Below are positions 1 through 16,789 of a stretch of DNA of 33,931 nt, one piece after another. Positions within the stretch are counted from its first letter, which is position 1; each line of letters opens with the position of its first letter. Location: the sequence record DRR723986_4705. One strand, 5' to 3'. The translations under genes were made by a program, and so were the position numbers. The notes below the pieces were generated by a model. That model was not told where the DNA came from, made no database searches, and saw only the letters and a program-made list of their open reading frames with translations.

Positions 1-27
1 AGGGTTCGAATCCCTCGCTCTCCGCCA
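1..27 (+). tRNA. tRNA-Ser, 3' part only (truncated by window edge; anticodon not visible)
   Basis: AGGG-TTCGAAT-CCCTC T-arm, acceptor 3' strand GCTCTCC, discriminator G, CCA end. The implied G1-C72/G2-C71/A3-U70 pairs and G73 are tRNA-Ser identity elements. Confidence 0.88.
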
Positions 28-68
28 TAAATGAATAGGGCCCCAGCAGGGGCCCTATTCATTTATGG
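25..68. terminator. Long hairpin after tRNA-Ser (terminator-like)
   Basis: Perfect 20-bp inverted repeat CCATAAATGAATAGGGCCCC (25-44) / GGGGCCCTATTCATTTATGG (49-68) with loop AGCA. Confidence 0.7.
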
Positions 69-213
69 TGAAGTGTGAGGACTTGGTTCGAACCCTCCGG
101 TTCGACAAAACGCGACCAAAGGAGCGTTTTGGACGAGGAGCCGAAGGCGACGAAGCCCGCGAAGCGGGTCACAACGGCCCAAAGGCCGGTGTGATCAATC
201 CCTCGCTCTCCGC

Positions 214-260
214 CATAAACAGAAAAGGGCTGCCCGTAGGGCGGCCCTTTTTTGTTTATG
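214..260. terminator. Bidirectional rho-independent terminator-like hairpin
   Basis: 22-bp stem with two G-T pairs and a GTA loop. The GC core GGGCTGCCC/GGGCGGCCC is flanked by an A-tract and a T-tract. Confidence 0.75.
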
Positions 261-446
261 CAGGTGAGTGGGATCTGGATGAGAACCCCGTTCGACAAAC
301 TCTCCCCAGGGGAGAGTTTGGACGAGGAGCGCAGCGACTAAGCCCCGCAGGGGTCAGAACAGCCCCTGGGCTGATCTGATCAATCCCTCGCCCGGAGTGT
401 CGAGATTAATCCGAGCGCTCGCTCAGAGCAGGGCATTCGTGCTACC

Positions 447-501: not shown

Positions 502-2208
502 TCAGCGCGCCGGAGCGACAAACTCGCCCGGCATATCGCCGGTGGGTGCGCCCTCAGTAAACGTTGTCACACCATTCACCATCGTCAGGCGCATGGGCGC
601 GGGGTCGCGGGTCCAGCGCCAGGTGGTGCCACCCTTGCCATCCGGCACATCAAAGATTTTGTATTTCTCCCGGCGCTCAATTTCATCCAGATTGAATACC
701 GTAATATCGGCGCGCTTACCCACACCGATAACGCCGCGATCGCCAAAACCGAAGTGATCCGCCAGCTTGCCGGTCTGGCAGTGAACTGCCTCTTCAACAG
801 TCAGCTTGCCGGTACGCACATAGTCCGTATATAGCAACAAGTTGTCACCGCTGCCGCAGAACAGCTGCCCGTGAGCACCGCTGTCATTGATATTGCCGAC
901 GGCTTTGGCATCTCGGGTCAGGCTGACCACCATGTCGTCGTCCAGATTCCAGGGTGGCATGGTCACGGTCGATGATAGCCCGTTATTAATGAACCACTCG
1001 GCAAGGGCGTCTGAGGCATGCACGCCAAGCTCGGCCGCATAGTCGCCAAGGGTGATGCCCTGGGGACCGACATCCTTCTCCGGGTTGTCCAGCAAGATGG
1101 GTTCGGGGTTACGGAAAAAAGAGGTTTCCAGCGACTCATTGTCCCAGGAGTGACGCGCTCGTTCACGCCAGTCGGGATCCGCCAGCAGCGCCAGCTTGGC
1201 CTCATCGGTCTCGGCCGTGACAACCTCATGCCAAACATACTCATTGGACTGGGCAAACAGCAGCGACTGGCGGATGCTCGCGGTCACAGTGATCGGCACG
1301 TGGGCATAGCCGGTCCAGAAGTCGCGCCCTTCTTTTGCAAATCTCTCGTGCAGCGCCACATAGGGTTCCTGCAGACCATAGTCCTTTTGCCACTGCAGGG
1401 TCGGTACACCCGCCCACTGCACGCGCACATCCAGCCCTTCGGTCAGTCGCGCGATGCGCTCCATTGTCTGGTCACCGGTAAAGCGCATCAGGGTATCGAT
1501 AATCACCTGCACCGTCGCGCCGGGGTAACGGGTCATTACTTCGAACAGGGCAATGAGTTCCGCATCGTCAGCGAGCATGGACGGGATGGGGCGATCTTCC
1601 CCGTCGTGATCCAGGAAATTGGTAGACAGGCCCAGGGCACCCGCTGCCAGTGCGTCATCCAGCAGCGCGGCTATCTGCTCGGTCTCTTCCGGCGTCGCGG
1701 CACGCTCCCATGCTTCCATACCCATCACTGCCAATCTCAGGGCGATATGGCCGACGAAGCTGCCATAATTCGCCGGCAGGCGGCACTGACTGGTCATGGA
1801 CTGCTTGTACTCCGACCAGGTACGCCAATCCCAGGGCAGGCTGCTGAAAAACGGGGGCTCCGGAATATCCTCGAAGAAGGAAAAGATCTTGACCACCTCG
1901 GCCCGCACTTCCGGATCTTCATGCACCGGCGCGAGGGCGAAACCGCAGTTGCCCATTACTACCGTGGTTACACCGCATCCAGGCAGGGGATCGAGGTCCG
2001 GCTGCCACCACATAATGCCGTCGAAGTGGGTGTGGCTTTCGATCAGTCCCGGCGTCACATAGCAGCCGTCGGCATGGAACACCTCTTCTCCGGGAGCAGC
2101 CTGTAATCCGGCACCGATCTCCGCGATCAGCCCGTCCGCGACGCGCACATCGCCCGCATAGGGCGCGGCGCCCGTGCCATCGACTACTGTTCCGCCCTTG
2201 ATCAACAT
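502..2208 (-). CDS. N-acyl-D-amino-acid deacylase family amidohydrolase
   Basis: 568 aa; N-terminus LIKGGTVVDGTG, PGLIESHTHFD metal motif, GNCG, C-terminal RGVIGVGKRADITVF; GGAG RBS upstream. Confidence 0.85.
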   Translation of the reverse strand: MLIKGGTVVDGTGAAPYAGDVRVADGLIAEIGAGLQAAPGEEVFHADGCYVTPGLIESHTHFDGIMWWQPDLDPLPGCGVTTVVMGNCGFALAPVHEDPEVRAEVVKIFSFFEDIPEPPFFSSLPWDWRTWSEYKQSMTSQCRLPANYGSFVGHIALRLAVMGMEAWERAATPEETEQIAALLDDALAAGALGLSTNFLDHDGEDRPIPSMLADDAELIALFEVMTRYPGATVQVIIDTLMRFTGDQTMERIARLTEGLDVRVQWAGVPTLQWQKDYGLQEPYVALHERFAKEGRDFWTGYAHVPITVTASIRQSLLFAQSNEYVWHEVVTAETDEAKLALLADPDWRERARHSWDNESLETSFFRNPEPILLDNPEKDVGPQGITLGDYAAELGVHASDALAEWFINNGLSSTVTMPPWNLDDDMVVSLTRDAKAVGNINDSGAHGQLFCGSGDNLLLYTDYVRTGKLTVEEAVHCQTGKLADHFGFGDRGVIGVGKRADITVFNLDEIERREKYKIFDVPDGKGGTTWRWTRDPAPMRLTMVNGVTTFTEGAPTGDMPGEFVAPAR

Positions 2209-2516
2209 ACCCTGTACTCCCAGCGATTCATTAGAGTCTGTAGTTTTCCAGATAGGGAAACGTTTTTTAGCTCAGGCCAAAGATGCTCACGGCTGAGTCG
2301 CCTGGGATCAAGTTGCGAGGTCTCAATCGAGCAATTGTCAGACCCGATTAGACCAGACAGTATCCGTTATTGAACCACGCTATAGGGCGCGCCATCCCCG
2401 GGCACCGGTCGTTCCTGTGGCTATCGTGGCCAATGAGCCGGTAAGTCTGTCTGCAGGGTATGATCGTGGCGCGTGGAATGGGCCTTCACCAAACGGCGCC
2501 AGGAGACTGGCCCAGA

Positions 2517-3683
2517 TTAGCGACAGCGAACAAAGGATAGAGTGCCCTCCCAGCCGGGTCCCCCGCTGGCACGGAGAATGCCGCCAGCGAGGGCTACCCC
2601 GTGCGAGCTCATTCCTCGTGCTGATTTGGGTACCAGCAGACGCTGTGTCAGATCTGGACCCAGCAGGACAAAATCATTGTGATCGGGGCCCTGTTCCCCT
2701 TTGGATCTGCGAAGAACCATGACGTCCTCGCTGGCTGAGCTGGCAAAATCGCCAACGACCATTGCCACCGCAATCCCGTCATCGCGGGGCTTGATACGAA
2801 TTTTCGATGCCCTGCGAAAACGGCAGGATGTGGGTGAGCAGGAAACCGTGAGGCGTTCCAGCGCGCTTTCGCCCAGCAGTAAAATGGACAGTGTGCCGTC
2901 CTGGCTATGAGGGTCTGCGTGGAAAAACTGGAGATCCTGCACCCAGTCGTCAGTTATGGTGTGTTTCTCAAACGATCCCCCATCGCGCTATAGCCAGAGC
3001 TCAGCGCCTTCTTCTTCTCCGCATAACGCGAAATCATCAAAACCATCGTCATTGACATCGGCGATGGCGACACAGCGTCCACCCGCCCTGTGGGGCAGGA
3101 TCTGCTCAATACGAAATTCAGAATCAGTAAGCCTGCCCACGAATGACTCGTTGAATCCGTCATCGTTTCGTTTGCCCCAGACGGTTATCAGGAGGCGGGC
3201 ATCAGTTGCGCTGCCCGGTTCCAGTGTTCTTATGAGTCGGCTCCTTAGAGTGGGTAATTTTGCGGTCTCGGGAATGTCAGCCAGGCGGAAATCCTGCCCG
3301 TCTTTTCGCTCGTAGAGCCTGTTGGGGTCGCCGCCTGCCTGACCCTGCTTGCCGCCGGCGATGCAGAACGGGCGCTCGGTGCCGGGTTCGTCTTTGCCAA
3401 GGATCGTACAGCTATGACGATCCCTGGCGTAGGGCAATACCGTGCTGCCAGTGGTCCAGATCCCGTTATGTAACATGACCGACCTATCGGCTTTTCCGCC
3501 GCCAGTATGCCCGAGGGGAAGCGCCTCTGAGCGCTTACCAGGGACATCCTGCAAAACAATCAGGTCGGTGAGTCGCCTGTCAGCCAGGGGTAGCTCTTCA
3601 ACGGAACAGGCCCCGACACTGGAATCGGAGTCACAGCTGGCAAGGGCTGACAGGAGTAACGCGGTCGCCAAACGCGATTTCAT
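2517..3683 (-). pseudogene. Lipoprotein with FG-GAP/VCBS-like repeat, interrupted by one in-frame TAG (2988-2990)
   Basis: ORFs 2988..3683 and 2517..2942 share a frame; read-through gives ...ELWL*RDGGSFEKHTITDDWVQDL... Lipobox LASC; Ca-binding-like motif IADVNDDGFDD. Confidence 0.7.
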
Positions 3684-3964
3684 CTACTTGTAACCGACCC
3701 CAGCATAAAAATGGAAAGATACACCTGATCAGGCTCGGGAGCTACGGTAGCCGCTTTATGGGAGCCAGAGCGCCTGGAAGACGACTTGCGCAACGTTGCT
3801 GCATTAGCTGGTCCAGGCCTCGCAGGTGCGACGGCAGGGCAAATCCATTCCTGCGATAACAGAGTCAACGCAACTCGGCCGGAGACACAATGTCTTGGGC
3901 GGTAAGTTTGTTATCTTAATATGACATCGATAGAATTGGCCGTCAGTTCGCACTACATTTCGCT

Positions 3965-5620
3965 ATGAACGAATCAAATCCAGCAGATCATCTTCTGATC
4001 CGCCAGTTGCGCGCGGAGTTGTCTGAACTTAAAGAGAAGCTGCAAGCGTATGAGGCGCCGGGCACCGATACACCATCTGGTGGCCATCTAGACCCAGCCA
4101 CCTCATACGAGCTCATTCTTGAGCTGAGTTCGCGGATCGCAGGACTGGGTTATGCCATCTGGGATCACGGCCTCGACCGAGATATCTATGTATCCGATGA
4201 ACTCGCCAGTATTTACGGCATGGGTGCTGCCGAGTACATGGAAAGAATCTCCAGCCTTGATGCCTACATCAGCCTTGTTCATCCTGAGGACAGGGATGGG
4301 TACGCTGAATACGAAAAAAACCTTGGCAAGTATCGAGGAGAAGCGCCGTTCTCGCACGATTACCGCATTATCAGGTATGAGAATGATGTCCGCTATGTGA
4401 GAGAGTCAGCGGTTTTCTTCCCGGACGAATCGGGGCTTCGCTCTCGAACGCTCGTTGTCATTCAGGATTTGACCGAGGCGAAGAGTCGAGAAATCAAGGC
4501 CATCGAAAATCAAGCGGCCCTTGCAAAAGTGCAGACGCTGTTACTCCAGGCCACTGATCTGGCGGGATTGGGGTATTGCGTATTCGATGATGATAGCAAG
4601 ACCTACGTCGAGGTTTCGGACGGCTTTGCGGGCATCTTTGGTTATACAGCGGAAGAGTTTTTGAAAGACATCAATACGCTGGAAGAGAACCTCAAACTCA
4701 TTCACCCGGCAGACCGGAAAAAGTTTGAGGATTTTTTTCTGGGTCAGACCATTGGTACTGATGCGCAAGAGTATCGCGTAGTCAGGCGTGACGGACAGAC
4801 CAGGTATATCCTGGAAACGCTGTCTCCCGTGCCGGGAAGAAACTACTTGCTAGTCTCGGCTCAGGATATAACAGCAAGAAGGCTGGCTGAGGCACAGCTC
4901 ATCCAGTCATCCAAACTTGCTTCTCTCGGAGAGATGGCTGCCAGCATTGCGCATGAGATTAACCAGCCCCTGCATGTGATAGCCCTGGCGGCGGAAAATA
5001 TAAGGGCGGCCCTTAATCAAGGCGCAGTGCAACAGCCTTGGATCGAAGCAAAACTGGAACGCATTTATGCCCAGACCCAGCGGGCATCAAAGATTATCGA
5101 TCACTTGAGGACTTTTGCCCGCGATACGTCCGCGGAGGAAGAATTATTTGATCCTTGCGATGCAGTGATCGAATCAATAGACCTGATGCGCGAGCAACTG
5201 CGGCTGGCGGGAATAGGTATCAAGGAAAGCTTTGGTGCGCGGGAGTATCAAGTTAAAGGCAGTAAGATCCGATTGGAGCAGGTGATCGTCAACTTGCTGT
5301 CCAACGCACAGTATGCAATTAAACAACATGACGATGAGCGCAAGGACATTGAGATAGCTGTAGACAAAGACCCGGGTGGCTTTATCTCTATCTCATGTGC
5401 TGATACCGGAGGCGGCGTTGCCAGTGAGCTGATACCCAATATTTTCGAGCCCTTCGTGACAGGAAAGCCGGTCTCTGAGGGCGCAGGGCTAGGTTTGTCT
5501 GTGAGCTACGGCATAATCAAGGAAATGGGCGGCACCATCGAAGCCGAAAACAGCAACGATGGGCTGATAGTCAAAATATTGCTCCCGGAGGCAAGTGCTG
5601 AGACCGATCTCTCGCTCTAG
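3965..5620 (+). CDS. Cytoplasmic PAS-PAS sensor histidine kinase (NtrB/DctB-like HisKA + HATPase)
   Basis: H-box AHEINQPL, N-box EQVIVNLLSNA, G1 DTGGG, F-box IFEPF, G2 GAGLGLS. Two PAS repeats (VHPEDR, IHPADR); no TM helix evident. Confidence 0.92.
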   Translation: MNESNPADHLLIRQLRAELSELKEKLQAYEAPGTDTPSGGHLDPATSYELILELSSRIAGLGYAIWDHGLDRDIYVSDELASIYGMGAAEYMERISSLDAYISLVHPEDRDGYAEYEKNLGKYRGEAPFSHDYRIIRYENDVRYVRESAVFFPDESGLRSRTLVVIQDLTEAKSREIKAIENQAALAKVQTLLLQATDLAGLGYCVFDDDSKTYVEVSDGFAGIFGYTAEEFLKDINTLEENLKLIHPADRKKFEDFFLGQTIGTDAQEYRVVRRDGQTRYILETLSPVPGRNYLLVSAQDITARRLAEAQLIQSSKLASLGEMAASIAHEINQPLHVIALAAENIRAALNQGAVQQPWIEAKLERIYAQTQRASKIIDHLRTFARDTSAEEELFDPCDAVIESIDLMREQLRLAGIGIKESFGAREYQVKGSKIRLEQVIVNLLSNAQYAIKQHDDERKDIEIAVDKDPGGFISISCADTGGGVASELIPNIFEPFVTGKPVSEGAGLGLSVSYGIIKEMGGTIEAENSNDGLIVKILLPEASAETDLSL

Positions 5621-6045
5621 TCCTTGCAGTTCATGTACACCGCCAACAGGCTCGCAGGCTCCGTGCCTGCGTTGTAGCCATGGTGGGTAACGTGCATAGC
5701 CTCCATCATGGCTTCGCCTGCCTTATACACATTGCTTACCCCGGTAGCGTAATCGACGCTGACAGCACCCGAGAGGATATAGGCATAGAGCGGAGTCAGG
5801 TGCTGGTGTGGTTTGCCGGTTTCTCCGGGAGCCATGGTAATCACCTCTGACAGAATCACCGGCGTGCAATCAGGGTAGGACAGGGGCCTGCCCAGGACAT
5901 CTGTGCTCGTTTCCAGGAGCAGTTGTGCAGGGTAACCGCCGGGAACGGCTTTTGATGACGGCTCCGCAGTTAAAGTGCTACTGAGCAGTGTCAGTGCCAG
6001 CCCGACGACTCTCGCAGCGCTGCCCGGTGTCAGCGAAATATTCAT
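5617..6045 (-). CDS. Exported cupin domain protein
   Basis: Cupin motifs HQH..PLYAYILSG and E....HHGYN; hydrophobic signal-like N-terminus. ATG 6045 has an AAGGGG RBS (alternative start 6066). Confidence 0.8.
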   Translation of the reverse strand: MNISLTPGSAARVVGLALTLLSSTLTAEPSSKAVPGGYPAQLLLETSTDVLGRPLSYPDCTPVILSEVITMAPGETGKPHQHLTPLYAYILSGAVSVDYATGVSNVYKAGEAMMEAMHVTHHGYNAGTEPASLLAVYMNCKD

Positions 6046-6105
6046 CAATACCCCTTCGTGAGTCATAGTAAGTACTTGATTAGGATCGTGTGAGGTGGTT
6101 AAAAG

Positions 6106-7230
6106 TCAGGAAGAGCCGGAGCTATTCAGGGCGTCTTCCCATACTGTGTGCCAGTAAGCCAGGAGGCATTCGTTACTGCCAAAGGTCAGCTGTTTGCCGG
6201 GCTTTAGTCCGCGCTGGGTCTGCTCGGCCATGGGTAGGTCCTCGCCGAAAAAGACCTCGCCGCCAAAGTTATAGGCGTCGACAGCGCTCTGGTGAGGTAT
6301 ATGTTGCCATCTCAGGCCGCTGTAGATCACGCGTGACCGGCCCGCATCCGAGCAAGGTTCGCACCTGATCATCTGGGCTCCGGAGGCATTGACGATAATC
6401 ATTACGCCCGGGAACAGCGTGTAGGTCCGCGAGCCCTGCAGCTCATCGGGCCACTGCGATTCGGGGAGCTCCTGCAGCTCGGTAATGGTTCTTAACGGGA
6501 AGGCCCAGCGTGTGTGGTGGCCCAAAAAGTCGAAAATCGGTTTGTCCAGGAGCAGGGCGGCTACCGAATCCCGGTGCAGCACGTTGAAGTGGTAGCTCTC
6601 CAGGCTTAGCTCGGTGATCAGCTTCCAGTTTGCCGATACCAGCGTCTCGCGTCTGCCCAGGGCTACGCCTGATGAGAGTTCGAGCGCCATCAGCTCGTCT
6701 GCGAGCGGCCCGAGAAAGGCGTTTACTGAGTCAGGCGTGTCGCTTCCCCCCGGTATGAGCAGGATCAAGCCTGCCATTTCGACGACATCAACCGGGTATA
6801 AGTCGGTATCGTCGCCATCGGCGAAACAGTCGGCGGCGGGCCTGCCTCTCAGTTCACCGGATAGGGCGTAGGTCCAGCCGTGGAACGGGCAGCTGATGGT
6901 CCTGGCCTGGCCAGCGCTCTCGACCAGCACGGTACCGCGGTGCCTGCAGCTGTTGAAAAAGCCGTGCAGCTCGCCGTCCCCATCCCGGGTAAGGATCAGC
7001 AGATCATCCAGGACCTCTACCGGCAGGTAGCTGTTGGGTTCTGGCAACTCCGCCGAGAATGCAATGACCTGTGGACTCTGTAAAAAGAGCTGCTTGCGCT
7101 CCTGCGCGTTGCGCGCGCTGTCCAGATAGCTATCCGTGTATACCTGCGTGGCATTTCCAGGCGAAGGCTGGCCAGATTTATCCAGGACGGCCTGTAACAG
7201 CCGTTTGTTCATTTCCCGCACGATGTTCAT
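6106..7230 (-). CDS. Rieske non-heme iron aromatic ring-hydroxylating oxygenase, alpha subunit
   Basis: Rieske motif CRHRG...CPFHGW, NWK motif, mononuclear Fe motif ESYHFNVLH, C-terminal ED. Confidence 0.92.
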   Translation of the reverse strand: MNIVREMNKRLLQAVLDKSGQPSPGNATQVYTDSYLDSARNAQERKQLFLQSPQVIAFSAELPEPNSYLPVEVLDDLLILTRDGDGELHGFFNSCRHRGTVLVESAGQARTISCPFHGWTYALSGELRGRPAADCFADGDDTDLYPVDVVEMAGLILLIPGGSDTPDSVNAFLGPLADELMALELSSGVALGRRETLVSANWKLITELSLESYHFNVLHRDSVAALLLDKPIFDFLGHHTRWAFPLRTITELQELPESQWPDELQGSRTYTLFPGVMIIVNASGAQMIRCEPCSDAGRSRVIYSGLRWQHIPHQSAVDAYNFGGEVFFGEDLPMAEQTQRGLKPGKQLTFGSNECLLAYWHTVWEDALNSSGSS

Positions 7231-7301
7231 TGTTCAGTAAGCTGTTTGTATGAAAGGCAGTTGCCGCCGCGCCAGAATAGTCATCCCGCGACGCTCCCCG
7301 C

Positions 7302-8444
7302 TCACGCGCTTATTGTCAGCGCAGCATAGCCGCGCGCCCAGTGTGACAGACGCCAGCGCGCTTCCGTTATTTGGTAGTTCGGGTATTTCTGTAAAAGCCG
7401 TGGAAAGTAGGCTTTGGCCTCAGCGCGGGCCAGGTGTTGCCCGATACATTTGTGCAGCCCGAAGCCCAGAGCCAACTGGTCGATGTTAGGGCGTTCGATA
7501 TCGAAGGTTTCCGGGTCTGGGTAGTGATCCGGATCGTGATTGGCCGCGGCAAACATCAGGCTGATTTCAGACCCTTTCGGGATGGTAATGCCGTGCAGCT
7601 CGAGATCCGCTGTCAGGCGTCTCGGCAGGCCCTGGGCAGGCGACTCCATTCGCAGCATTTCTTCCACGGCACCATCAAGGAGTTCGGGTTTGTCGATCAG
7701 GCGTTGGCGCTGTTCGGGAAACCGTGCCAGTAGTCCGGTGCCGTTGCCCAGCAGGTTAATGGTGGTATCGACGCCGGCAAAGCCCAGGCAGTTGGCAAAA
7801 ATAGTGACTTCCTCTGTCGTCATCTCGCCGCTGGCCTCGCGGGCGATCAGCCAGCTGAGATGGTCGTCACCCGGCTTGCGTCGCTTCTCCTCCAGAACCT
7901 GCTGAATCAGGGCGGCAAAATCATCGAGCACTTTGAGGGCAATGAGCGGTCCGGCCTCGTTTTCAGTGGCTGGATCGACGCCCATCAGGATCTCGCCGAT
8001 GTCATACCAGTGATCTGCCTCCGATTCCGGGAAACCGAGGAAACGGGTCATGAACAACTGTGGCAGAGGCCTGATGACCGCGTTATAGAGATCGATCTCC
8101 CCGCCAGCGGGTAACGCTTGAAATAACTCGTCAAGAATCGATTCGACGGTGGGCCGTAACGTGTCTACTACCCCGCGGGAAAATTCCGGCAGGATGGATT
8201 TACGTATCGAGCGGTGTAATTCACCGTCGGTGGTTGCCAGTGACGGGATGTAACTGTGGCCGGTGTCCCCGTTGAGTGTGCCCTCGGGGTGGCGCAGGAG
8301 CCGTCGGACGTCTTCGTAGCGGGTTATCATCCAGATGTTGCGACTTTCGTCAAAATAAACCGGGTGCTGCTGCCTGAGCGACGCGTATCGGTTGTAGATA
8401 TCGTTGTGATAATCCGCAGACAGTACGTCAACAATCTGGGTCAT
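7302..8444 (-). CDS. Cytochrome P450
   Basis: I-helix AGVDTT, ExxR (EMLR), heme-binding GFGLHKCIG. Start moved to ATG 8444, which has GGAGG 8 nt upstream. Confidence 0.93.
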   Translation of the reverse strand: MTQIVDVLSADYHNDIYNRYASLRQQHPVYFDESRNIWMITRYEDVRRLLRHPEGTLNGDTGHSYIPSLATTDGELHRSIRKSILPEFSRGVVDTLRPTVESILDELFQALPAGGEIDLYNAVIRPLPQLFMTRFLGFPESEADHWYDIGEILMGVDPATENEAGPLIALKVLDDFAALIQQVLEEKRRKPGDDHLSWLIAREASGEMTTEEVTIFANCLGFAGVDTTINLLGNGTGLLARFPEQRQRLIDKPELLDGAVEEMLRMESPAQGLPRRLTADLELHGITIPKGSEISLMFAAANHDPDHYPDPETFDIERPNIDQLALGFGLHKCIGQHLARAEAKAYFPRLLQKYPNYQITEARWRLSHWARGYAALTISA

Positions 8445-8508
8445 TTGGACGTCCTCCGGCACAGAGCGAGTAGCTACAATATCGCGAAGCAAGGCGATTG
8501 CCTACTGC

Positions 8509-8886
8509 TCAGCCTCGCCTGACTACCATCACCTCGTATTGTCCACGGGGGCCGATGAATTGTGCGCAAAGGCCGCTGACAACACTCACGATGATGGCTC
8601 CGAAGACGGCACTCCAGAAGCCAACCACCTCAAACCCGTCCACAAACCAGCCGGCCAGGTTCAGCATGGCCGCGTTCAGTAGCAGCAGGAATACGCCGAG
8701 CGTCAGAATGGTAAGCGGGAGCGTCAACAACACAAGCACGGGTCGCACGATAGCGTTGATCAGGCCAAGGGCAATCGCCGCCCAGATCAGGGCGCTGGTC
8801 GAACTCGCACTGACACCCGGTACGAGGTAGGCGGCGAGCCAGATCCCGAGCCCGGTGACGACAGTTCGTAAGATGATTCCCAGCAT
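8509..8886 (-). CDS. Phage holin superfamily IV / YvlD (DUF360) membrane protein
   Basis: Four hydrophobic helices; family signature NAIVRPVLVLLTLPLTILTLGVF. Confidence 0.85.
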   Translation of the reverse strand: MLGIILRTVVTGLGIWLAAYLVPGVSASSTSALIWAAIALGLINAIVRPVLVLLTLPLTILTLGVFLLLLNAAMLNLAGWFVDGFEVVGFWSAVFGAIIVSVVSGLCAQFIGPRGQYEVMVVRRG

Positions 8887-8968
8887 CAGGTCACTCTATC
8901 ACCGGGGCTTGGAAGGTGCCAGATATCCTGGTCGTCTGTCCGGCCCGCCTGCTGTTCCCGTACATCAA

Positions 8969-10039
8969 CTAAAGCCCGGTGGCGCGCAATACGATCTCGT
9001 CGGAGCCGGCCGGGAGGGAGAAGGCCGTCCCGTCCTCACCAATGGTGTAGTTCGGGAAGATCGATTCAGCGCCGTTGAGGTACAGGCTTTTCTGTCCCGG
9101 AATCACCAGGGGCGGCACGATGTGGTAGTACAGCAGGTGTCCCACGCCGGCATCCCTGGCAGTCTCTGCCGCTTCCACCGGGCTGGCATGGTAGTCGAGA
9201 ATGTCCTCGGTAATTTTGTCCATGATCGCGTTGCCGTTCTTGCGCGCGGCAGCGTTCATCATATTCACCAGGTTTGGCGCCAGCGCTTCGTGTACCAGTA
9301 GGTCTACGCCCTTGGCAAAGTTCTCGATGTTGGCCTGTTTGATGGTATCGCCGGTGATCAGCAGCGAGCGCCCCTTGTAGGTAAACCGGTAGCCGACCGC
9401 CGGCTCCACCGGCGAATGGTCGACGGCAAGCGCCTCGACGGTGAGCCCATCGGCCTCAAAAACGGTATGCAGTTGCCCAACTGGTGGCTTGGCGAATGGC
9501 AGCGCTGTCATCCCGGCGCCACTGATCGGGGCTACGCTGTCGCCGTGGTGCGCGTTGCGATAGACAACGTCCTGAGCGTAGGCGGTATTGAAGCCAGCCA
9601 CCACCTGCTCGACGCCGGTCGGTCCGTACACTGGCAGCGGGCTGGCATTATCGCCGCTCGCCCAACGAAGCGTTGCCAGCTCGCCAAGGCCATCAATGTG
9701 ATCGGAGTGAAAATGGGTCAGTAATACCGCCTGTAGCTTACCCACCGCGTAGCCCATGCGGCCCAGGTTGCGAACCCCGTCGGTGCCGGCATCGACCACG
9801 AACAGCGTTTTCCCGGCAACGACTGCCACGCAGGGCCCTGACGCATTCGGGGCGGGCAGGGGGCCGCCCGCGCCGCACAGGGCCAGGTGCAGACCGTCAT
9901 CGAGTTCTGCCACGATATCTGCACCCATGCGCGCTTCGAGGCCGCGCGCCAACAGGGCGCCAGCAATCTTTGCACGCTGCGTATAGCCGGCGGCTAACAG
10001 GGTGGCGACGATCATGGCCAGTACCGCGATTTTTTTCAT
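8969..10039 (-). CDS. MBL-fold metallo-hydrolase, RNase Z/AtsA-like, with N-terminal signal or anchor
   Basis: THFHSDH motif, VDAG, VDHSP, TGDT, LVHEA. ATG 10039 (MKKIAVLAM...) has an AGGA RBS. Confidence 0.85.
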   Translation of the reverse strand: MKKIAVLAMIVATLLAAGYTQRAKIAGALLARGLEARMGADIVAELDDGLHLALCGAGGPLPAPNASGPCVAVVAGKTLFVVDAGTDGVRNLGRMGYAVGKLQAVLLTHFHSDHIDGLGELATLRWASGDNASPLPVYGPTGVEQVVAGFNTAYAQDVVYRNAHHGDSVAPISGAGMTALPFAKPPVGQLHTVFEADGLTVEALAVDHSPVEPAVGYRFTYKGRSLLITGDTIKQANIENFAKGVDLLVHEALAPNLVNMMNAAARKNGNAIMDKITEDILDYHASPVEAAETARDAGVGHLLYYHIVPPLVIPGQKSLYLNGAESIFPNYTIGEDGTAFSLPAGSDEIVLRATGL

Positions 10040-10185
10040 TGTCTGTTCCTGACGCAAAGACGTGGTTTCTAAGGTGACGCCACAGTGTACTGAGTGGCCT
10101 ATACTCTGTCACTGCAAGCCAAACACCCACCCCAGGTCATCGTCTGACTGGCTCGTCGATGCACCGCTGAACAGGAATTTATGAC

Positions 10186-10860
10186 GTGCAGTACGCCCTC
10201 AATAACAATATCGCTACCCTGACTTTTGATGACGGCAAGGCCAATGTCGTGGGACAACCATTCCTGGATGATATCAACGCGGGTCTCGATCGGGCTCTGG
10301 AAGAGCGGGTCGGCGCAGTGATTCTCAAGGGCAGGGAGGGCATGTTTTCAGGAGGGTTTGACCTTAACGAATTCAAGAAGGGGCCGGAACAGGGGCTGGC
10401 CATGGTTAGCCGGGGGTTTGAGCTGCTCGTGCGCCTGTACAGCTATCCCCTGCCGCTGGTCGCGGCCTGCACCGGTCACGGCATCGCCATGGGGGCCTTT
10501 ATCATCATGGCCTGTGACAGCCGGGTCGCTGTGCGCGGAGCCTACAAGATGAGCTTACCCGAAACCGCTATCGGTATGGACCTGCCGCCTCTCCTTGTGA
10601 GCTTAACCCGTGCGCGGATTAATAGCGCCTACCTCACCCGGGTGGCGCTGCAGTCAGAGGTGTTTGATCCTGAAGCTGCGGTAGGTGCGGGGTTTATCGA
10701 TGAAACCGTTGATCCCGGCGAACTGGATAGCAGGGCCATGGCCATCGCGGAAAAGCTCGCATTACTGCCCCAGGCACAGTACGCCACGAACAAGCTTGCG
10801 ATCCGCGCTGGCACTCTGGAAGCCATGCGCTCGAGCCTCGAGCAGTTGGCAAAATCATAG
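10186..10860 (+). CDS. Crotonase / enoyl-CoA hydratase family protein
   Basis: DDGKAN, FSGGFDL, CTGHGIAMGA and LPETAIG motifs; GTG start with AGGA upstream. Confidence 0.88.
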   Translation: MQYALNNNIATLTFDDGKANVVGQPFLDDINAGLDRALEERVGAVILKGREGMFSGGFDLNEFKKGPEQGLAMVSRGFELLVRLYSYPLPLVAACTGHGIAMGAFIIMACDSRVAVRGAYKMSLPETAIGMDLPPLLVSLTRARINSAYLTRVALQSEVFDPEAAVGAGFIDETVDPGELDSRAMAIAEKLALLPQAQYATNKLAIRAGTLEAMRSSLEQLAKS

Positions 10861-10905
10861 CGACGCGGCAACCGATTGTGGCGGGTGAGTCCGCCGGAGA
10901 AAACC

Positions 10906-11949
10906 ATGGCCTCACCCGAAAGAATTCAACTGCTTGGCGCAACGGCATCGCCCTATACCCAGAAGATGGTCGCCCTGTTGCGTTACCGGCATATCCCCTA
11001 CGCCATCAGCTGGGGAGATGCCGCTGCCTTTCTCGATGCCCGGGGTATTGAGAAACCCCGGCCCCTGTTAATGCCCACCTTTCTGTTCGAGGAGGAGGGT
11101 GAACTTCGGCCGGTCTGTGACTCCACGCCGATTATTCGCCGCCTCGAAAGCAGTGTCCCGGGCCGCTCGGTTATACCGCCCGATCCGGCGCTGGCCTTTA
11201 TCGATTATCTCATCGAGGACTTCGGGGATGAGTGGTGTACCAAGTACATGTTCCACTACCGTTGGTACCCCGAGGCAGATGCTGACAACGCCGGCACACT
11301 GCTACCCCTGGCGATTGATGTCAGTATGCCGCCCGCGCAGCTGCAGCAGGCCAAGGCCTATTTCTCCGAGCGCCAGATCGGTCGCCTTTACGTGGTGGGT
11401 TCCAGCGATACGACAGCGCCGGTCATCGACGCGAGCTACCGTCGCTTTCTCCTTGCGATGGAAAATCATCTCGCCAAGCATCACTTCATGCTCGGTAACC
11501 GGCCGGGCGCGGGTGATTTTGCCCTGTACGGGCAGCTAACCCAGCTGGTTGGCTTCGATCCAACGCCGCGAGCTATTGCGCACGACCTCTCACCGCGGAC
11601 TGTGGCCTGGGTGGGGCAGGTCGCCGATCTGAGTGGCGTGGACGTCGGGGCCGATGACTGGATTGATCCGGACGCTGCGCCAAACAGCCTGCGCGACCTG
11701 CTTACCGAGGTCGGTCGCGTTTACGCACCGGCCCTGCTGGCCAATGCTGCGGCAGTGCGGCAGGGCGCCAAGTCATGGGTGGCGGAAATCGACGGCGCCA
11801 CCTGGCAGCAGCAGACATTTCCCTACCAGGCCAAGTGCCTGAAGTGGATCAACGAACAGTACCAGGCACTGGACGATCAGAACCGCTCCCGGGTCGACAA
11901 GCTGCTGGAGGGTACTGGCTGCGAAACGCTCCTGATCGGCGGCGCGTAA
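10906..11949 (+). CDS. Glutathione S-transferase family protein (long form)
   Basis: N-terminal SPYTQK, MP..., DSTPII, DEW....MFHYRW, FMLGNRPGAGDFALYG. ATG 10906 has a GGAG RBS. Confidence 0.82.
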   Translation: MASPERIQLLGATASPYTQKMVALLRYRHIPYAISWGDAAAFLDARGIEKPRPLLMPTFLFEEEGELRPVCDSTPIIRRLESSVPGRSVIPPDPALAFIDYLIEDFGDEWCTKYMFHYRWYPEADADNAGTLLPLAIDVSMPPAQLQQAKAYFSERQIGRLYVVGSSDTTAPVIDASYRRFLLAMENHLAKHHFMLGNRPGAGDFALYGQLTQLVGFDPTPRAIAHDLSPRTVAWVGQVADLSGVDVGADDWIDPDAAPNSLRDLLTEVGRVYAPALLANAAAVRQGAKSWVAEIDGATWQQQTFPYQAKCLKWINEQYQALDDQNRSRVDKLLEGTGCETLLIGGA

Positions 11950-11977
11950 TCAGCTTGTCAGGTGACGGCCGCAAGAT

Positions 11978-13441
11978 TCAGGTCAGGAACGTCTCGCGGG
12001 TAAAGCTGCCGTGAAAGCCGAAGGGCACGTGGTGGTCCAGCATGATTGCAGCCAGTTCGTTTTCCGGATTGGCTGCCTCCAGTACGACGACTTCGGAGCG
12101 ATGCGCGCCAGCATCGTACACCACCGCAAGCAAATACCCGTCATCCGTCGCTGTCGCCCCCTCGCGAGGCACGAACAGTGCTTCCGACGTATAACGGTTC
12201 TCGCCAACGTCCGCCGTCTTCACCGCACCGGTGACGGTATCCAGCTTCACCACGCTGTTGAAGAACCCGGTCTGGCGCTGGTCCGCGTGAGCCACAAAAA
12301 AGCAGTGCCGGGTGTCAGTACCTGATCGGCTGTTATCCCAGGCGGGAAATTCGCCGATCGGGGCGCTGTCGTAGCACGCCTGCGCAGTCCGGCCGGTTTT
12401 CACGTTGATCCGCAGGCGGTTCAGTGATGCGCCGGCGACCCGTTCAACCGCAAAGACATCGCCGAGCCAGGAGAAGCCCTCGGTGTCGGTCGTATGGAAG
12501 AAATCGGTGACGATCTCATCGCCCACTTCAAAGGAATTGGCGAAGTGGATAACGATGCCGGGAGGCAGCTCGAAGCGCTGGGCGACGCTCATGCTGCGCA
12601 GGTCGACCACGATCCCGGCCATGGGCATTTGCTCGTCATAGTGCAGTGAATCGCTCAGGGTTGAGGTTCCGAGCAATGGGCCGCCAAGGCCGAAGCTGAT
12701 CGAGCTGACAATGAAAACGGCATAGTTTTCGGTGAGGCCGAAATCATGCAGGAATGGAAACCCTGGCAGTGGAATTCGGCAGCTGGAGCGGACCTGGCCT
12801 GTCGTGTCGATATCAAAAACGTCCAGGGCGCATTTTATTCCGCCCAGACCGAGGCCGGCGAGGTTGACCCCGAAGTTGATCTGGTGGCCATTGGCCGGAT
12901 GAACCTTGCCATGCGCACTGATTGTGGTACGCGCGTTCAGGGCGTCGCCGTAGTACTCCGGCCCCTCGGTTTCGAGTGTTTGCGGATCGAGGCGGTAGGG
13001 CTGGCCGCCCTCGTAGAACGCACAGAGCTTGCCGCCATGCCAGAAGACGTTGGTATTGGCGGGGTTGGAGATGGGGCGCAGCAGGTTGCGCAGCAGACCA
13101 CCTTCGATCTGGGTGCCGAAACCACGGCAGCTGATTTTGCCGTTGCCACTGTCTTTCAGGTACTTGGGTGTCCTGACGTAGCGGTTCTTGAAGTGCGCTT
13201 TACCTTCGGCGAAGGTCACGGCGCTGACCATGCCGGGCCCGTCGAACCAGTGGCCGTAAGGGCTTTCGCCGATCGCCATGCTGCCCGGCCCGTTGCGAAA
13301 CAGGGTGCCTGTGAGGTCGGGCGGTAGCTTGCCGCGGACAGTGTCAATCCAGCCGCTGTGTTCATCCTGCAAGGGCAGGAATCCGCGGTGAAAATCGCCT
13401 TCGCGATCGGCGATCGCCTGCATGCTGGTTAAGCTGGTCAT
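11978..13441 (-). CDS. Carotenoid cleavage oxygenase family (RPE65/ACO-like)
   Basis: GTLFRNGPG, HWFDGPGM, NPANTNV; four Fe-ligand His contexts SAHGK, FLHDF, IHFAN, GFHGSF; EFP and SEALFVPR...DDGYL. Confidence 0.92.
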   Translation of the reverse strand: MTSLTSMQAIADREGDFHRGFLPLQDEHSGWIDTVRGKLPPDLTGTLFRNGPGSMAIGESPYGHWFDGPGMVSAVTFAEGKAHFKNRYVRTPKYLKDSGNGKISCRGFGTQIEGGLLRNLLRPISNPANTNVFWHGGKLCAFYEGGQPYRLDPQTLETEGPEYYGDALNARTTISAHGKVHPANGHQINFGVNLAGLGLGGIKCALDVFDIDTTGQVRSSCRIPLPGFPFLHDFGLTENYAVFIVSSISFGLGGPLLGTSTLSDSLHYDEQMPMAGIVVDLRSMSVAQRFELPPGIVIHFANSFEVGDEIVTDFFHTTDTEGFSWLGDVFAVERVAGASLNRLRINVKTGRTAQACYDSAPIGEFPAWDNSRSGTDTRHCFFVAHADQRQTGFFNSVVKLDTVTGAVKTADVGENRYTSEALFVPREGATATDDGYLLAVVYDAGAHRSEVVVLEAANPENELAAIMLDHHVPFGFHGSFTRETFLT

Positions 13442-14196
13442 GTCGTTTCCTTGTGACTATTGGCTGTCGCCGGGCTTCCGCCGGCTATGTTGGGCTGCTG
13501 TGTACCGTCTTCCGGCAGGAGGATGTCGACGCTGGCAATGAGCAGCGCGTCTACCAGCGCATCCACATCGATATCGAGTTTCTCGAGCATGCGGTGGTTG
13601 TAGAGGTCGATCAGGCCGTGGGTGTTGGTGAGCAAGGTGATGACTCTTACCCAGATCGCATTGGCGCCAAAATCCTCCGCGCCGGGTCCTTCCAGACCGG
13701 GCAGGGACTGGTCGTCTGTTGGCGGGGTCATGGTAATCCCGTACTGGCCGAGAATTTCCGCGAACACGCCCATCATGCGCATTACCGTCTGCTGCCTCAG
13801 GTCGCCGTCAAGGGCCCGGTATTCGCCGTCGCTGTTCTCGCGCAGGCTGATGGGGGGGTGGAGCATGAGTTCCCAGTACCCGGTCCAGTCGCGGGAAAAG
13901 CGCACGGCGGACTGCAGCATCGATACCAGTTTCTGGCGCGGGGCGTCCGCGCTGTCCAGACCCTCGCGGGTGTAGCTGTCCAGCAGGGCGAAACCGCGCT
14001 GCGTGGTCTCCACGAACAGTTGCTGCTTGCTGGGGAAGTAGTTGTAGAGGTTTGCCGCGGTCATACCCGTGCTTGCCGCCAGGGCGCGCATCGATAGCTT
14101 GTCGACCCCGGCCACCGCCAGCACCTGAGACGCCTCATCCATGATGCGCTCTTTCTGTGCCGTGATTTCCGCGTCAGAGTAGGCTTTCTTCGGCAT
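13438..14196 (-). CDS. TetR/AcrR family transcriptional regulator
   Basis: N-terminal HTH LSMRALA...GMTAANLYNYFPSKQQL; 4-nt ATGA overlap with the oxygenase gene. Confidence 0.92.
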   Translation of the reverse strand: MPKKAYSDAEITAQKERIMDEASQVLAVAGVDKLSMRALAASTGMTAANLYNYFPSKQQLFVETTQRGFALLDSYTREGLDSADAPRQKLVSMLQSAVRFSRDWTGYWELMLHPPISLRENSDGEYRALDGDLRQQTVMRMMGVFAEILGQYGITMTPPTDDQSLPGLEGPGAEDFGANAIWVRVITLLTNTHGLIDLYNHRMLEKLDIDVDALVDALLIASVDILLPEDGTQQPNIAGGSPATANSHKETT

Positions 14197-14258
14197 AACA
14201 GTGTCCGGCTGGCGGACGGTCCCCCTATCGCCGTCCCGGGTGGCGGCTGATGGGTTGA

Positions 14259-14294
14259 AGATTAATAAACAACCGTTAAATTAACAAGTGTTCA
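14259..14294 (-). promoter_or_regulatory. Putative sigma70 promoter of tetR-oxygenase, overlapped by tandem palindromic operators
   Basis: Minus strand TTGTTA (14287-14282), 17 nt, TAATCT (14264-14259). AAC-N4-GTT boxes at 14266-14279 and 14281-14294. Confidence 0.5.
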
Positions 14295-14362
14295 GTGAAT
14301 ATCGCAGGCCAAATATGTCGCTTATCACGACCTGTCGCCATGATGGGTAAAGCCTGATTGGT

Positions 14363-16789
14363 TTAGTTGCTAAGCCTTACTGTGATGCCGTAGGTGGCCT
14401 GCGGCGCGACAACACCTGCGTAACCCCCGATGGTGGGTATGTCGAGGCCGAACACGTAATACTCCTCATCCAGCAGGTTGCGGCCCCAGAGAATAAGCTC
14501 CCAGTCGCGGGCGCTGTTGCTGAGAGTCAGCCGCAGGTTAACGAGGTTGACCGCGTCGTTTTCCAGATGAGGATCGAGGTCCTCTTCGAGAAAAAAACTG
14601 TCGATGAAGCTGTGTTCCAGGCGTCCGAGCAGCACCAGATCGTCGCCCAGAGACCACTCGTAATCAAGGTAGCTGCTGAGCGTCCACTCCGGTGCATTGG
14701 CCAGGGGCTTGCCCGCCAGGTCCTGGCTGCAGCTGCTGTTGGTGCCCGGCGAGCCGCCCTGGGCGCCCTCCTCGATGTAGTATTGGGTGAAGGTCTGCTC
14801 CACCGTGCACTGGGCGTTGTCGAAGGAATCATACTCGGCCTTGTTGAAGCCCAGGGCCATGCCCAGGGTCATATCGGCTACCGGGACGAACATGGCTTCC
14901 AGTTCGACCCCGTAGCTCTCCAGGTTGCCCGCGTTGGTCACCCTGACCGAGGAACCGTCGAAAGTCTGGGACTGGAAATCTTCGTAGTCGACAAAAAAGA
15001 GGGTGCCGTTGAACTGCAGGCGCCGGTTGTTCCAGGTGGTCTTCCAGCCCATTTCGTAGTTGGTGGCTATCTCTTCATCGAATTCGCCGTCGGAGCTGGA
15101 TATCTCGCGGCGCTGGTTATAACCACCGGACTTGAATCCCCGGCTCACCGAACCGTAGACCATGGTGTCCGCGTCGAAGAAGTAACGCAGGTTGATTGCC
15201 GGGGAGATGGCGGAGTCGCTGCGACTGCTGTCGTAGTAAATGTCGGGGCCTGCAACGGGTGGCAAGTCGATAGGAAAGCTCGGCGAGGTCAGTTGCGAGC
15301 CTTCCCGCTGCTTCTTTTCATAGGTATAGCGCAGGCCAAAGGTCGCACTGAGATCATCATTGATATTCCAGCTGGCCTGGCCGAAAGCGGCGTAGCTGGT
15401 GGTGGTGTAGTCATTGGTATCGACGTTGGTGGAGCCCTCGGGGAAGAAGGTGCCCAGGGTAAGACCACCGCCCACACTGATGTTGTCAACCAGGGTCTCT
15501 TGCTGGGTGAAGGTGCCAACCGAGTCGAAGGTCGAATAGTACGCGTACAGCCCGCCCTGGTAGTCGATGACCTCGCCCCCGGGAGAGGTGAAGCGAAGCT
15601 CCGATGAATACTGGTCAAGCTCGACTTCGGTCTGGGTGCTCACCGCAGCGTAGGCGGTGAAATCGCCATCGAACTGGCTGTCAGAGCTGTAATGCCGCCA
15701 GGCATTGAGAAAGGTCAGCGCGCTGCCATCGGCAAGGTCCCTGTTCCACTCCACTGCGGCCCCGCCGACCTCGACCTCGTTGCGCAGGGGATCATCGAAC
15801 CAGTAATCGTCGCCGAATGGATTGGCGCGCGGCGGCGAAAAGCCTTCGGCATCTTCCAGCGCGCTGTACTGGAGGATTGGGTTGCCAAGGGCATTCAATC
15901 CCAGCTCCGCCTGCAGTTCAGCCGAGGGGTGATTGGTGGTGGGCGAATTCAACACCGACAGCCCGTTGTAATCAATCACCGCAAAGGCACAGCAGTCGGT
16001 GTCTTCCCTGGTGTAATCAAGGGTGACGATCAGTTCACCAAAGTCCGCTCCGGATTGCTCACCGTCAAGATCCAGCAGCAGGCGTGACCTTGCGCCGTAT
16101 TTGCTGGCATTGTTTACACCCTTGCCGGTAACCGTGTTGGTGTACAGGTGGTCGCCATCGATACCGAAACCTGTCAGGCGCAGTGCATGGGCTGAGTCAC
16201 CCAGCGGCAGGTTGATCATGCCGCGCAGTTCGAGACGGTCGTTGCTGTCATAGCTGGCCTCGACCATCGACTCGAAATCCGCGCTTGGCCTGTTGGTAAA
16301 CACACTGATCGCACCGGCGGAGGTATTCTTGCCGTAGAGCGTGCCCTGCGGGCCGCGTAACACCTCTACCCGCTGTACGTCTACGAGGTCACCGATGCTC
16401 ATGCCGGTGCGACCCTGGTAGACGCCATCAATAAACAGGCCGACGCTGGGATCCACGCCGGAGTTACTGCCCACCGAGCCAATGCCGCGTATGCGGATCG
16501 CGGTTGAACGGGTGTCGGTTCCCTCGCTGATCCGCAGGTTGGGTGTGTACTGGTCCAGTTCGGCAATCTCGGTGACTCCCGAGTCGCGAAAGAAATCCTC
16601 GGAGAAGGCGGAGACCGACATGGGGACATCCTGGAGGTTCTCCAGGCGTCGGGTCGCTGTTACCAGCACTTCTTCCAGCGCCAGGCTTTTCTTTGCCGGT
16701 TTCTCAGTGGTGTTTTGCTGGGCCATGGCGGGCATGGCAATCGTGCTCATGCTGGCGAGCAAGGCAACAAGAAATCTCGAACCTGTCAT
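14363..16789 (-). CDS. TonB-dependent receptor
   Basis: Signal peptide, TonB box LEEVLVTA, plug motifs IRIRGIG and VEVLRGPQGTLYGKN, barrel motifs SRGFKSGG and GRNLLDEEY. Confidence 0.95.
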   Translation of the reverse strand: MTGSRFLVALLASMSTIAMPAMAQQNTTEKPAKKSLALEEVLVTATRRLENLQDVPMSVSAFSEDFFRDSGVTEIAELDQYTPNLRISEGTDTRSTAIRIRGIGSVGSNSGVDPSVGLFIDGVYQGRTGMSIGDLVDVQRVEVLRGPQGTLYGKNTSAGAISVFTNRPSADFESMVEASYDSNDRLELRGMINLPLGDSAHALRLTGFGIDGDHLYTNTVTGKGVNNASKYGARSRLLLDLDGEQSGADFGELIVTLDYTREDTDCCAFAVIDYNGLSVLNSPTTNHPSAELQAELGLNALGNPILQYSALEDAEGFSPPRANPFGDDYWFDDPLRNEVEVGGAAVEWNRDLADGSALTFLNAWRHYSSDSQFDGDFTAYAAVSTQTEVELDQYSSELRFTSPGGEVIDYQGGLYAYYSTFDSVGTFTQQETLVDNISVGGGLTLGTFFPEGSTNVDTNDYTTTSYAAFGQASWNINDDLSATFGLRYTYEKKQREGSQLTSPSFPIDLPPVAGPDIYYDSSRSDSAISPAINLRYFFDADTMVYGSVSRGFKSGGYNQRREISSSDGEFDEEIATNYEMGWKTTWNNRRLQFNGTLFFVDYEDFQSQTFDGSSVRVTNAGNLESYGVELEAMFVPVADMTLGMALGFNKAEYDSFDNAQCTVEQTFTQYYIEEGAQGGSPGTNSSCSQDLAGKPLANAPEWTLSSYLDYEWSLGDDLVLLGRLEHSFIDSFFLEEDLDPHLENDAVNLVNLRLTLSNSARDWELILWGRNLLDEEYYVFGLDIPTIGGYAGVVAPQATYGITVRLSN

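Follow-up and report, generated by a model that had tools for sequence, protein, structure and literature searches.

Two structured units behind a serine tRNA gene

The window analysed here, i.e., the whole DNA stretch of 33,931 nucleotides (sequence record DRR723986_4705), opens on the plus strand with the 3' end of a tRNA-Ser(GCT) gene, whose last 27 nt, read directly at positions 1-27, comprise the 3' part of the T-arm, the acceptor 3' strand GCTCTCC, the discriminator G and the encoded CCA. No tRNA was called by ARAGORN anywhere in the window, since the tRNA gene is cut by the window edge and only its last 27 nt lie inside; the tRNA-Ser(gct) genes called by the program in the loci L016, L021 and L026 possess ends identical to the last 22 of these 27 nt, 22 nt being the stretch that was compared. 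[quoted passage not shown] The original prediction that this end recurs at 9, 197 and 382 holds, in that a 23-nt string, AATCCCTCGCTCTCCGCCATAAA, which spans T-loop A58 through CCA plus TAAA, occurs exactly (100% identity) at both 9-31 and 197-219, and a third, partial copy, AATCCCTCGC, which keeps 10-11 nt of the string, is found at 382-392. The repeat periods are 188 and 185 bp, with 165-188 bp of non-coding structured DNA between the tRNA ends. The two units align over 193 columns with a mean column identity of 81%, and Tandem Repeats Finder gives no rows for the array because the units are too divergent.

Two covariance models were used to describe the cores: R1, the core model, made of 24 sequences with 28 pairs over ~97 positions, and R2, a broader model built from 108 R1 matches and devoid of any E. 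coli row. Unit 1 begins with hairpin 1 (24-69, plus strand), a 21-bp stem with a GC-rich top, preceded by an A-rich and followed by a U-rich stretch (RNAfold -39.1 kcal/mol, z -9.8), which is terminator-like and probably leaky. In the 5' arm of unit 1 (63-96, plus strand) the tRNA 3' end, T-arm included, reappears as a reverse complement in degenerate form (inverted repeats I1 and I3), and owing to this complementarity the stretch 1-100 of the window folds as one single long hairpin of ~46 bp (-71.8 kcal/mol, z -12.4). An alternative pairing occurs in the minimum free energy fold of 66-215, where the arm closes the unit with the copied tRNA end at 201-215. The core of unit 1 (97-201, plus strand; R1 90.3 bits, E 7e-20; R2 84.1 bits) runs from GGTTCGAC through hairpin A, GGACGAGGAGC, hairpin B, GACGAAG, hairpin C and hairpin D to ATCAATCC, and leads into the exact copy of the tRNA 3' end (197-219, plus strand). 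Unit 2 begins with hairpin 2 (212-262, plus strand), a GC-rich stem succeeded by TTTTTTGTTT in the shape of an intrinsic terminator (RNAfold -36.7 kcal/mol, z -8.5), with a textbook T-run. A simple promoter and terminator scan of the window from 1 to 700 returned nothing, neither hairpin 1 nor hairpin 2 being flagged. The 5' arm of unit 2 (256-286, plus strand) repeats this pattern as a degenerate inverted copy of the same tRNA end (I2), followed by the GATGAGAAC motif, and introduces the core of unit 2 (287-386, plus strand; R1 94.7 bits, E 6e-21; R2 91.2 bits), which leads into the truncated copy of the tRNA 3' end at 382-392 (plus strand) and then into the flank CCGGAG.... This flank is common to the loci L009 and L021, and shares 76% identity with L009 over 80 nt.

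Both units exhibit the same order of elements, as had been proposed, and every landmark named at that time was located in unit 1 and in unit 2: a long hairpin, GAACCC, GTTCGA, hairpin A (106-131 and 296-320, respectively), GACGAGGA, hairpin B, GACNAAG, hairpin C and hairpin D (169-194 and 354-379, respectively). The changes reported within the stem of hairpin D, where C172-G191 of unit 1 is replaced by G357-C376 in unit 2 and G176-C187 by A361-T372, had been read correctly and keep the pairing, and the A.purine mismatch described at one shared position corresponds to A.G (174.189) in unit 1 and A.A (359.374) in unit 2. In the broader family, tandem G.A/A.G pairs often occupy this same position at the base of hairpin D. 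The fold of unit 1 reaches -71.5 kcal/mol (z -4.9), which is equalled by none of 200 shuffles, and that of unit 2 reaches -61.5 kcal/mol (z -2.4), which is equalled by 4 of 200; the minus strand folds about as well as the plus strand (z -3.8).

R2 run with its filters off finds no third unit in the window. At 450-472, 58 nt past the truncated copy at 382-392, the string AAGCCCTCACTCTCCGCTG resembles the full 3' end of tRNA-Ser (about 16 of 19 nt), and strings resembling the start of a core occur at 510-529, within the 3' end of an amidohydrolase ORF on the opposite strand. From their resemblance these two stretches may be the relic of a third unit; a decayed unit at ~450-600 nevertheless received no support, R2 with filters off giving 6.1 bits at best, on the other strand. 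On the minus strand at 403-494, a hairpin GAGCG-AG-CGCTC beside GGATTAATC resembles the 3' end of an inverted unit (R2 6.1 bits). The genes located at 502-16789 encode an amidohydrolase, a PAS histidine kinase, a Rieske oxygenase, a P450, a protein of the metallo-beta-lactamase fold, an enoyl-CoA hydratase, a GST, a carotenoid oxygenase-like RPE65 protein, a TetR protein and a TonB-dependent receptor, i.e., an ordinary context of catabolism and regulation with no mobile-element genes.

Homologues and conservation of the core

The search of relatives with a covariance model, as originally suggested, recovered homologues whose helices covary. A pattern scan of species-representative genomes yielded 30 loci, nearly all from Porticoccaceae, Halieaceae, Spongiibacteraceae and other Cellvibrionales-type records, one of them (L023) being rejected as a chance match. 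At E <= 0.01, R1 matches 30 of the 151 genomes of an even sample of the class, with a same-strand tRNA upstream at 22 of the 29 best-hit loci of this class sample, and at E <= 0.001 R2 matches 28 of the 151 genomes of a phylum sample. Depending on the genome, the copy number by R1 amounts to 2, 3, 4, 5 or 24 matches in the five genomes considered, the 24 belonging to L029, which like L011 and L005 stems from a cultured strain, and an array of five units occurs behind a tRNA-Met in one R1-searched genome. The divergent subfamily represented by the window is common in marine Cellvibrionales-type Gammaproteobacteria, and the host of the window is itself marine and Cellvibrionales-like. The core of unit 1 is 94% identical to a unit of L016 and that of unit 2 is 84% identical to L009, whereas the two cores of the window are only 72% identical to each other, which agrees with the view that the array is not a simple recent duplication.

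Metagenomes were also searched. The sequencing runs recovered comprised 12 DNA metagenomes and no RNA run; none of the 12 contained half of the window's sampled words, and the contigs obtained from 4 of these runs were fragmented, with many loose ends from other copies of the family and none bridging the array. At 48 metagenome loci with an amidohydrolase neighbour (54-84% identity) R2 found no match, and a scan of 31 of these loci with ARAGORN gave no tRNA call; the neighbouring amidohydrolase gene occurs in none of the family loci collected earlier.

The claim that selection acts on structure is supported by covariation of the helices across 24 and across 107 distinct homologues. In the R1 alignment of 24 sequences, 96.1% of the cells are paired and 15 of the 28 pairs have changed on both sides, a level of pairing attained by none of 500 shuffles and by far exceeding the 30-43% of slid controls. 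In the 107 distinct matches, pairing holds in 93.2% of the cells and 27 of 28 pairs show double-sided change, these figures being inflated since the alignment was fitted to the model. Across the 24 sequences, conservation falls in the linkers and not in codons. With respect to the strand, G.U pairs outnumber A.C pairs by 38 to 14 (p 0.0012) in helices A-D, helix 1 and one loop-closing pair having been excluded post hoc, whereas over all 28 modelled pairs both are equally frequent (52 and 50, respectively). The bias within helices A-D favours a sense-strand RNA, for which it provides limited support.

The termini of the core correspond to the two halves of a T-loop, GGTTCGA at the start (5' half) and AATCC at the end (3' half), after which each unit repeats the T-stem and the acceptor 3' strand of the neighbouring tRNA. 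A same-strand tRNA occurs upstream of 80 of the 108 units in the fetched loci, several of the other 28 being located at contig or locus edges, and the linked tRNAs represent 15 anticodon types. The proposal of a family of small structured elements, tandemly arranged behind tRNA genes, thus agrees with its multi-copy occurrence behind these 15 types. The distance from the tRNA to the first core is 34-104 nt, and further cores recur every ~180-200 nt. Over the 16 nt that follow AAT, the end of the cognate tRNA is matched at 10.9 positions versus 7.1 for non-cognate tRNAs, the match being perfect in 22 of the 80 units and comprising an exact run of at least 5 nt in 56 of them. Similarly, the 5' arm matches the reverse complement of the cognate tRNA at 10.4 positions versus 7.2 for other tRNAs. 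The 5 nt preceding TTCGA were considered as a further copy of the cognate T-stem and discarded, since their match (2.80 versus 2.60 of 5) is not tRNA-specific. In 46 of the 80 units the 3' copy has diverged or is truncated. Among these, the arm has its better fit with the tRNA end in 26 cases and with the end of the unit itself in 9, the remaining 11 being ties (p 0.006), so that it is the complement of the tRNA end which is maintained, and not necessarily a stem closing the unit.

Some loci depart from the common architecture. In L013 a second core (6417-6501, minus strand) is inverted at the contig end and faces the first unit behind a tRNA-Ser(GCT), which is the sole head-to-head pair seen. 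Hairpin-like insertions of 20-30 nt, located between hairpins B and C or within hairpin D, occur in L006 (5435-5557), L030 (1355-1457) and L016 (1427-1545). L028 contains, at 29-190, a decaying copy of tRNA-Val(GAC) whose anticodon arm and T-stem are nearly identical to those of the real gene at 213-289, and in which the 5' flank of the core is a direct tRNA copy instead of an inverted arm.

Relationship to the tRNA-linked repeats of Escherichia coli

The original prediction did not assign this architecture to any named family, a view that has to be abandoned: the array belongs to the family of tRNA-linked repeats (TLRs) of E. coli, including the rtT repeats of tyrT, which the prediction had itself mentioned, and R2, the model of the family, finds the E. 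coli TLRs. The array is a divergent member of the TLR/RtT family. In E. coli K-12, where the narrower R1 gives no match, R2 matches at seven places. The elements located just after the 5S rRNA in rrnD, rrnA and rrnB score 46 bits (E 2e-6). Behind serX, two units reach 32.4 bits each and a third one reaches 28.4 bits in a local search; the matches at 781.7 kb and 2521.4 kb are weak (19.4 bits, E 1.4). With the filters off, R2 also recovers the tyrT locus, where the three repeats and the spacer between tyrT and tyrV score 15.3-19.5 bits. The positions of the rrn, serX and tyrT units were checked against the annotation of the record.

The match in the rrnB T1-T2 segment (L098, 331-416) is the best R2 match in E. 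coli. Many cloning vectors include this segment as a terminator cassette, and such plasmids would consequently carry a TLR core.

[quoted passage not shown] The window agrees in several respects. Its array lies directly downstream of a stable RNA gene on the same strand, comprises two units by both R1 and R2, displays dual terminators, and contains a core homologous in sequence and structure to the E. coli units, as demonstrated through R2; with regard to the repeated 3' end, unit 1 has 19 identical nt within the 23-nt repeat and unit 2 keeps 10-11 nt. It differs from the E. coli TLRs in its linkers GGACGAGGAGC and GCGACGAAG, which are distinct and conserved, in the longer hairpin D of the window type with its CCYUWAGG top, and in the marine Cellvibrionales-like host, with up to 24 matches per genome in the family.

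With respect to Rfam, no hit was obtained in the window at gathering thresholds. The Rfam scan proposed to reveal a described family had a mixed outcome: the units of the window, scanned in E-value mode, remain below the threshold of RtT (15.0 bits versus 45), whereas a relative, the element of L073, exceeds it (52.3 bits, threshold 45; R1 34.1 bits), being the only one of 20 class-level loci scanned to pass. At 15 bits versus a threshold of 45, the unit of the window is not a member of RtT as Rfam now draws RF00391. It nevertheless aligns to this model over the full length on the same strand (window 54-215 versus model 1-130), sharing the 5' arm, the GAUGAGAAC and GGUUCGA motifs, hairpin C, and AAUCC followed by the tRNA end, and it differs from the tyrT rtT/rttR elements in ending as tRNA-Ser instead of tRNA-Tyr. 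RrA, RrB and RrF, located between T1 and T2 of rrnA, rrnB and rrnD and giving, with 46 bits, the best R2 matches in E. coli, resemble the window in presenting hairpins A-D in the same order and in ending with a copy of the 3' end of the upstream RNA, but they are linked to 5S rRNA whereas the window units are linked to a tRNA. Another Rfam family, RF02902 (AaHKsRNA22, Aggregatibacter sRNA 22), shows a weak full-length match to window 95-209 with hairpins A, C and D in order (21.7 bits, E 0.027), below its threshold of 39.8.

As to function, TLRs are described in PMC8144298 as having 'no known function', although they have been known since 1978, and an earlier claim involving rtT in amino-acid starvation is stated there to have been withdrawn. 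The same account reports that RrA, RrB and RrF are made by read-through of T1 and subsequently processed, with Hfq and CsrA binding in vitro, this binding being shown for RrB alone, and mentions the proposal that the repeated 3' end is an RNase E signal. In what bioRxiv 10.1101/2024.07.17.603846 presents of rttR, the latter figures as a stress-responsive locus only. In RrB the GGA motifs lie in two loops, those of hairpins A and D, whereas in the window they are found in hairpin A and in the following linker. Since GGA is not enriched in the cores (2.20 per core versus 2.24 in dinucleotide shuffles), a partner of the CsrA type is without independent support, and the idea of a CsrA sponge was dropped.

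A proposed processed passenger RNA and other readings

The preferred reading, to which a probability of about 0.65 is assigned, considers the array as a two-unit TLR locus of the family comprising the rtT repeats of tyrT and the rrA/rrB/rrF elements behind 5S rRNA, belonging to a divergent subfamily and composed of units that would be co-transcribed with the tRNA and processed as a passenger RNA. By analogy with RrB and rtT of E. coli, the units would be transcribed together with the tRNA by read-through of the leaky hairpin 1 and, as each unit carries the tRNA end, would be excised by the enzymes that mature tRNA 3' ends. The product might be a stable structured RNA of ~150 nt, in which the conserved core and linkers could bind a partner. 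The number of units may shift by unequal recombination between the repeated tRNA ends, and either selection in favour of the long hairpin or copying templated by the palindrome could keep the arm matched to the tRNA. An 'acceptor-like' closing stem, however, is not what many units maintain, 46 of 80 having a diverged or truncated 3' copy, which weighs against this reading. Also on the negative side are the equal counts of G.U and A.C over all modelled pairs, the comparable fold of the minus strand, the lack of GGA enrichment, the RtT scores of the window units below the Rfam threshold and the two hairpins left unflagged by the simple terminator scan.

Rather less plausible is the idea that the core is a selfish, non-autonomous mobile DNA that targets tRNA genes, entering them at one set position of the T-loop or at their 3' end, and whose hairpins would be read on the DNA by a recombinase acting in trans, the RNA being incidental. 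The 24 matches in one genome, the arrays of five and the occurrence of the core behind 15 tRNA types would suit such an element, and so would the window cores, which resemble cores of other genomes (94% and 84% identity) more than they resemble each other (72%), and the nearest neighbour of a core, which stands behind a different tRNA in 15 cases and behind the same one in 4 (one of the two tRNAs being unknown in 28 cases). The equality of G.U and A.C over all pairs points in the same direction, as does the tRNA-Val pseudo-copy of L028, in which the core sits exactly between GGTTCGA and ATCC of the T-loop, but the strand bias in the well-supported helices favours an RNA. In this respect, the recombinase or HUH nuclease expected to co-occur with the units did not appear: no integrase, transposase or HUH protein is found among the 20 largest ORFs of the window, and the Y1 transposase shows no association with the element, being present in 21 of the 30 genomes that carry it versus 72 of the 121 that do not (p 0.40; this tally includes G044 and G146, marked unpublished), while G001, with 4 copies, has no Y1_Tnp match. 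Moreover, neither a target-site duplication nor terminal inverted repeats of its own were seen, and no gain or loss between close relatives was observed in the metagenome contigs of 4 runs or at the amidohydrolase-neighbour loci. Mobility, as expressed by the term 'acquired' in the original prediction, is suggested but not demonstrated.

Two other explanations fare much worse. Integration by tyrosine integrases leaves direct repeats of the tRNA 3' end, and the 23-nt exact direct repeat would fit an att-site scar of a decayed island or phage; such an origin is very improbable, as a single conserved core with covarying helices occurs behind 15 tRNA types and, in E. coli, behind 5S rRNA, as the units measure only ~185 bp with 165-188 bp of structured DNA and no island between the repeats, and as the 20 largest ORFs of the window include no integrase. 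A plain local tandem duplication under neutral drift, or a gene for a small protein (ORF 65-379 or a tpr-like peptide), would account for the tandem layout with periods of 188 and 185 bp and for the 104-aa ORF that spans the units. It deserves hardly any credence, since the cores are 72% alike while reaching 94% and 84% identity with cores in other genomes, the stem changes are compensatory, the gaps between units are not multiples of three and, across the 24 sequences, linkers and not codons are conserved.

A bolder extension, which is put forward as a speculation with the odds clearly against it, regards the four-hairpin core of ~97 positions as a widespread autonomous module, present in about one-fifth of the sampled Gammaproteobacteria/Pseudomonadota genomes, that would colonise the T-loop or 3' end of any copy of a stable RNA gene and gain the end of that gene on both sides, the direct copy by conversion and the inverted copy by palindrome-templated synthesis across the terminator. 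If true, it would represent an RNA gene of a new kind, mobile or self-propagating without an enzyme, that rides on tRNA promoters and processing.

Read as a TLR locus, the array places the TLRs of E. coli at the edge of a much larger, structure-conserved family, whose core can be modelled, follows no fewer than 15 types of tRNA and has ends that fit the respective host tRNA. This family accounts for a recurrent class of 'tRNA 3'-end repeats' which might otherwise pass for scars of integration, and the covariance model, together with the cultured carriers, allows its function, processing and spread to be tested.
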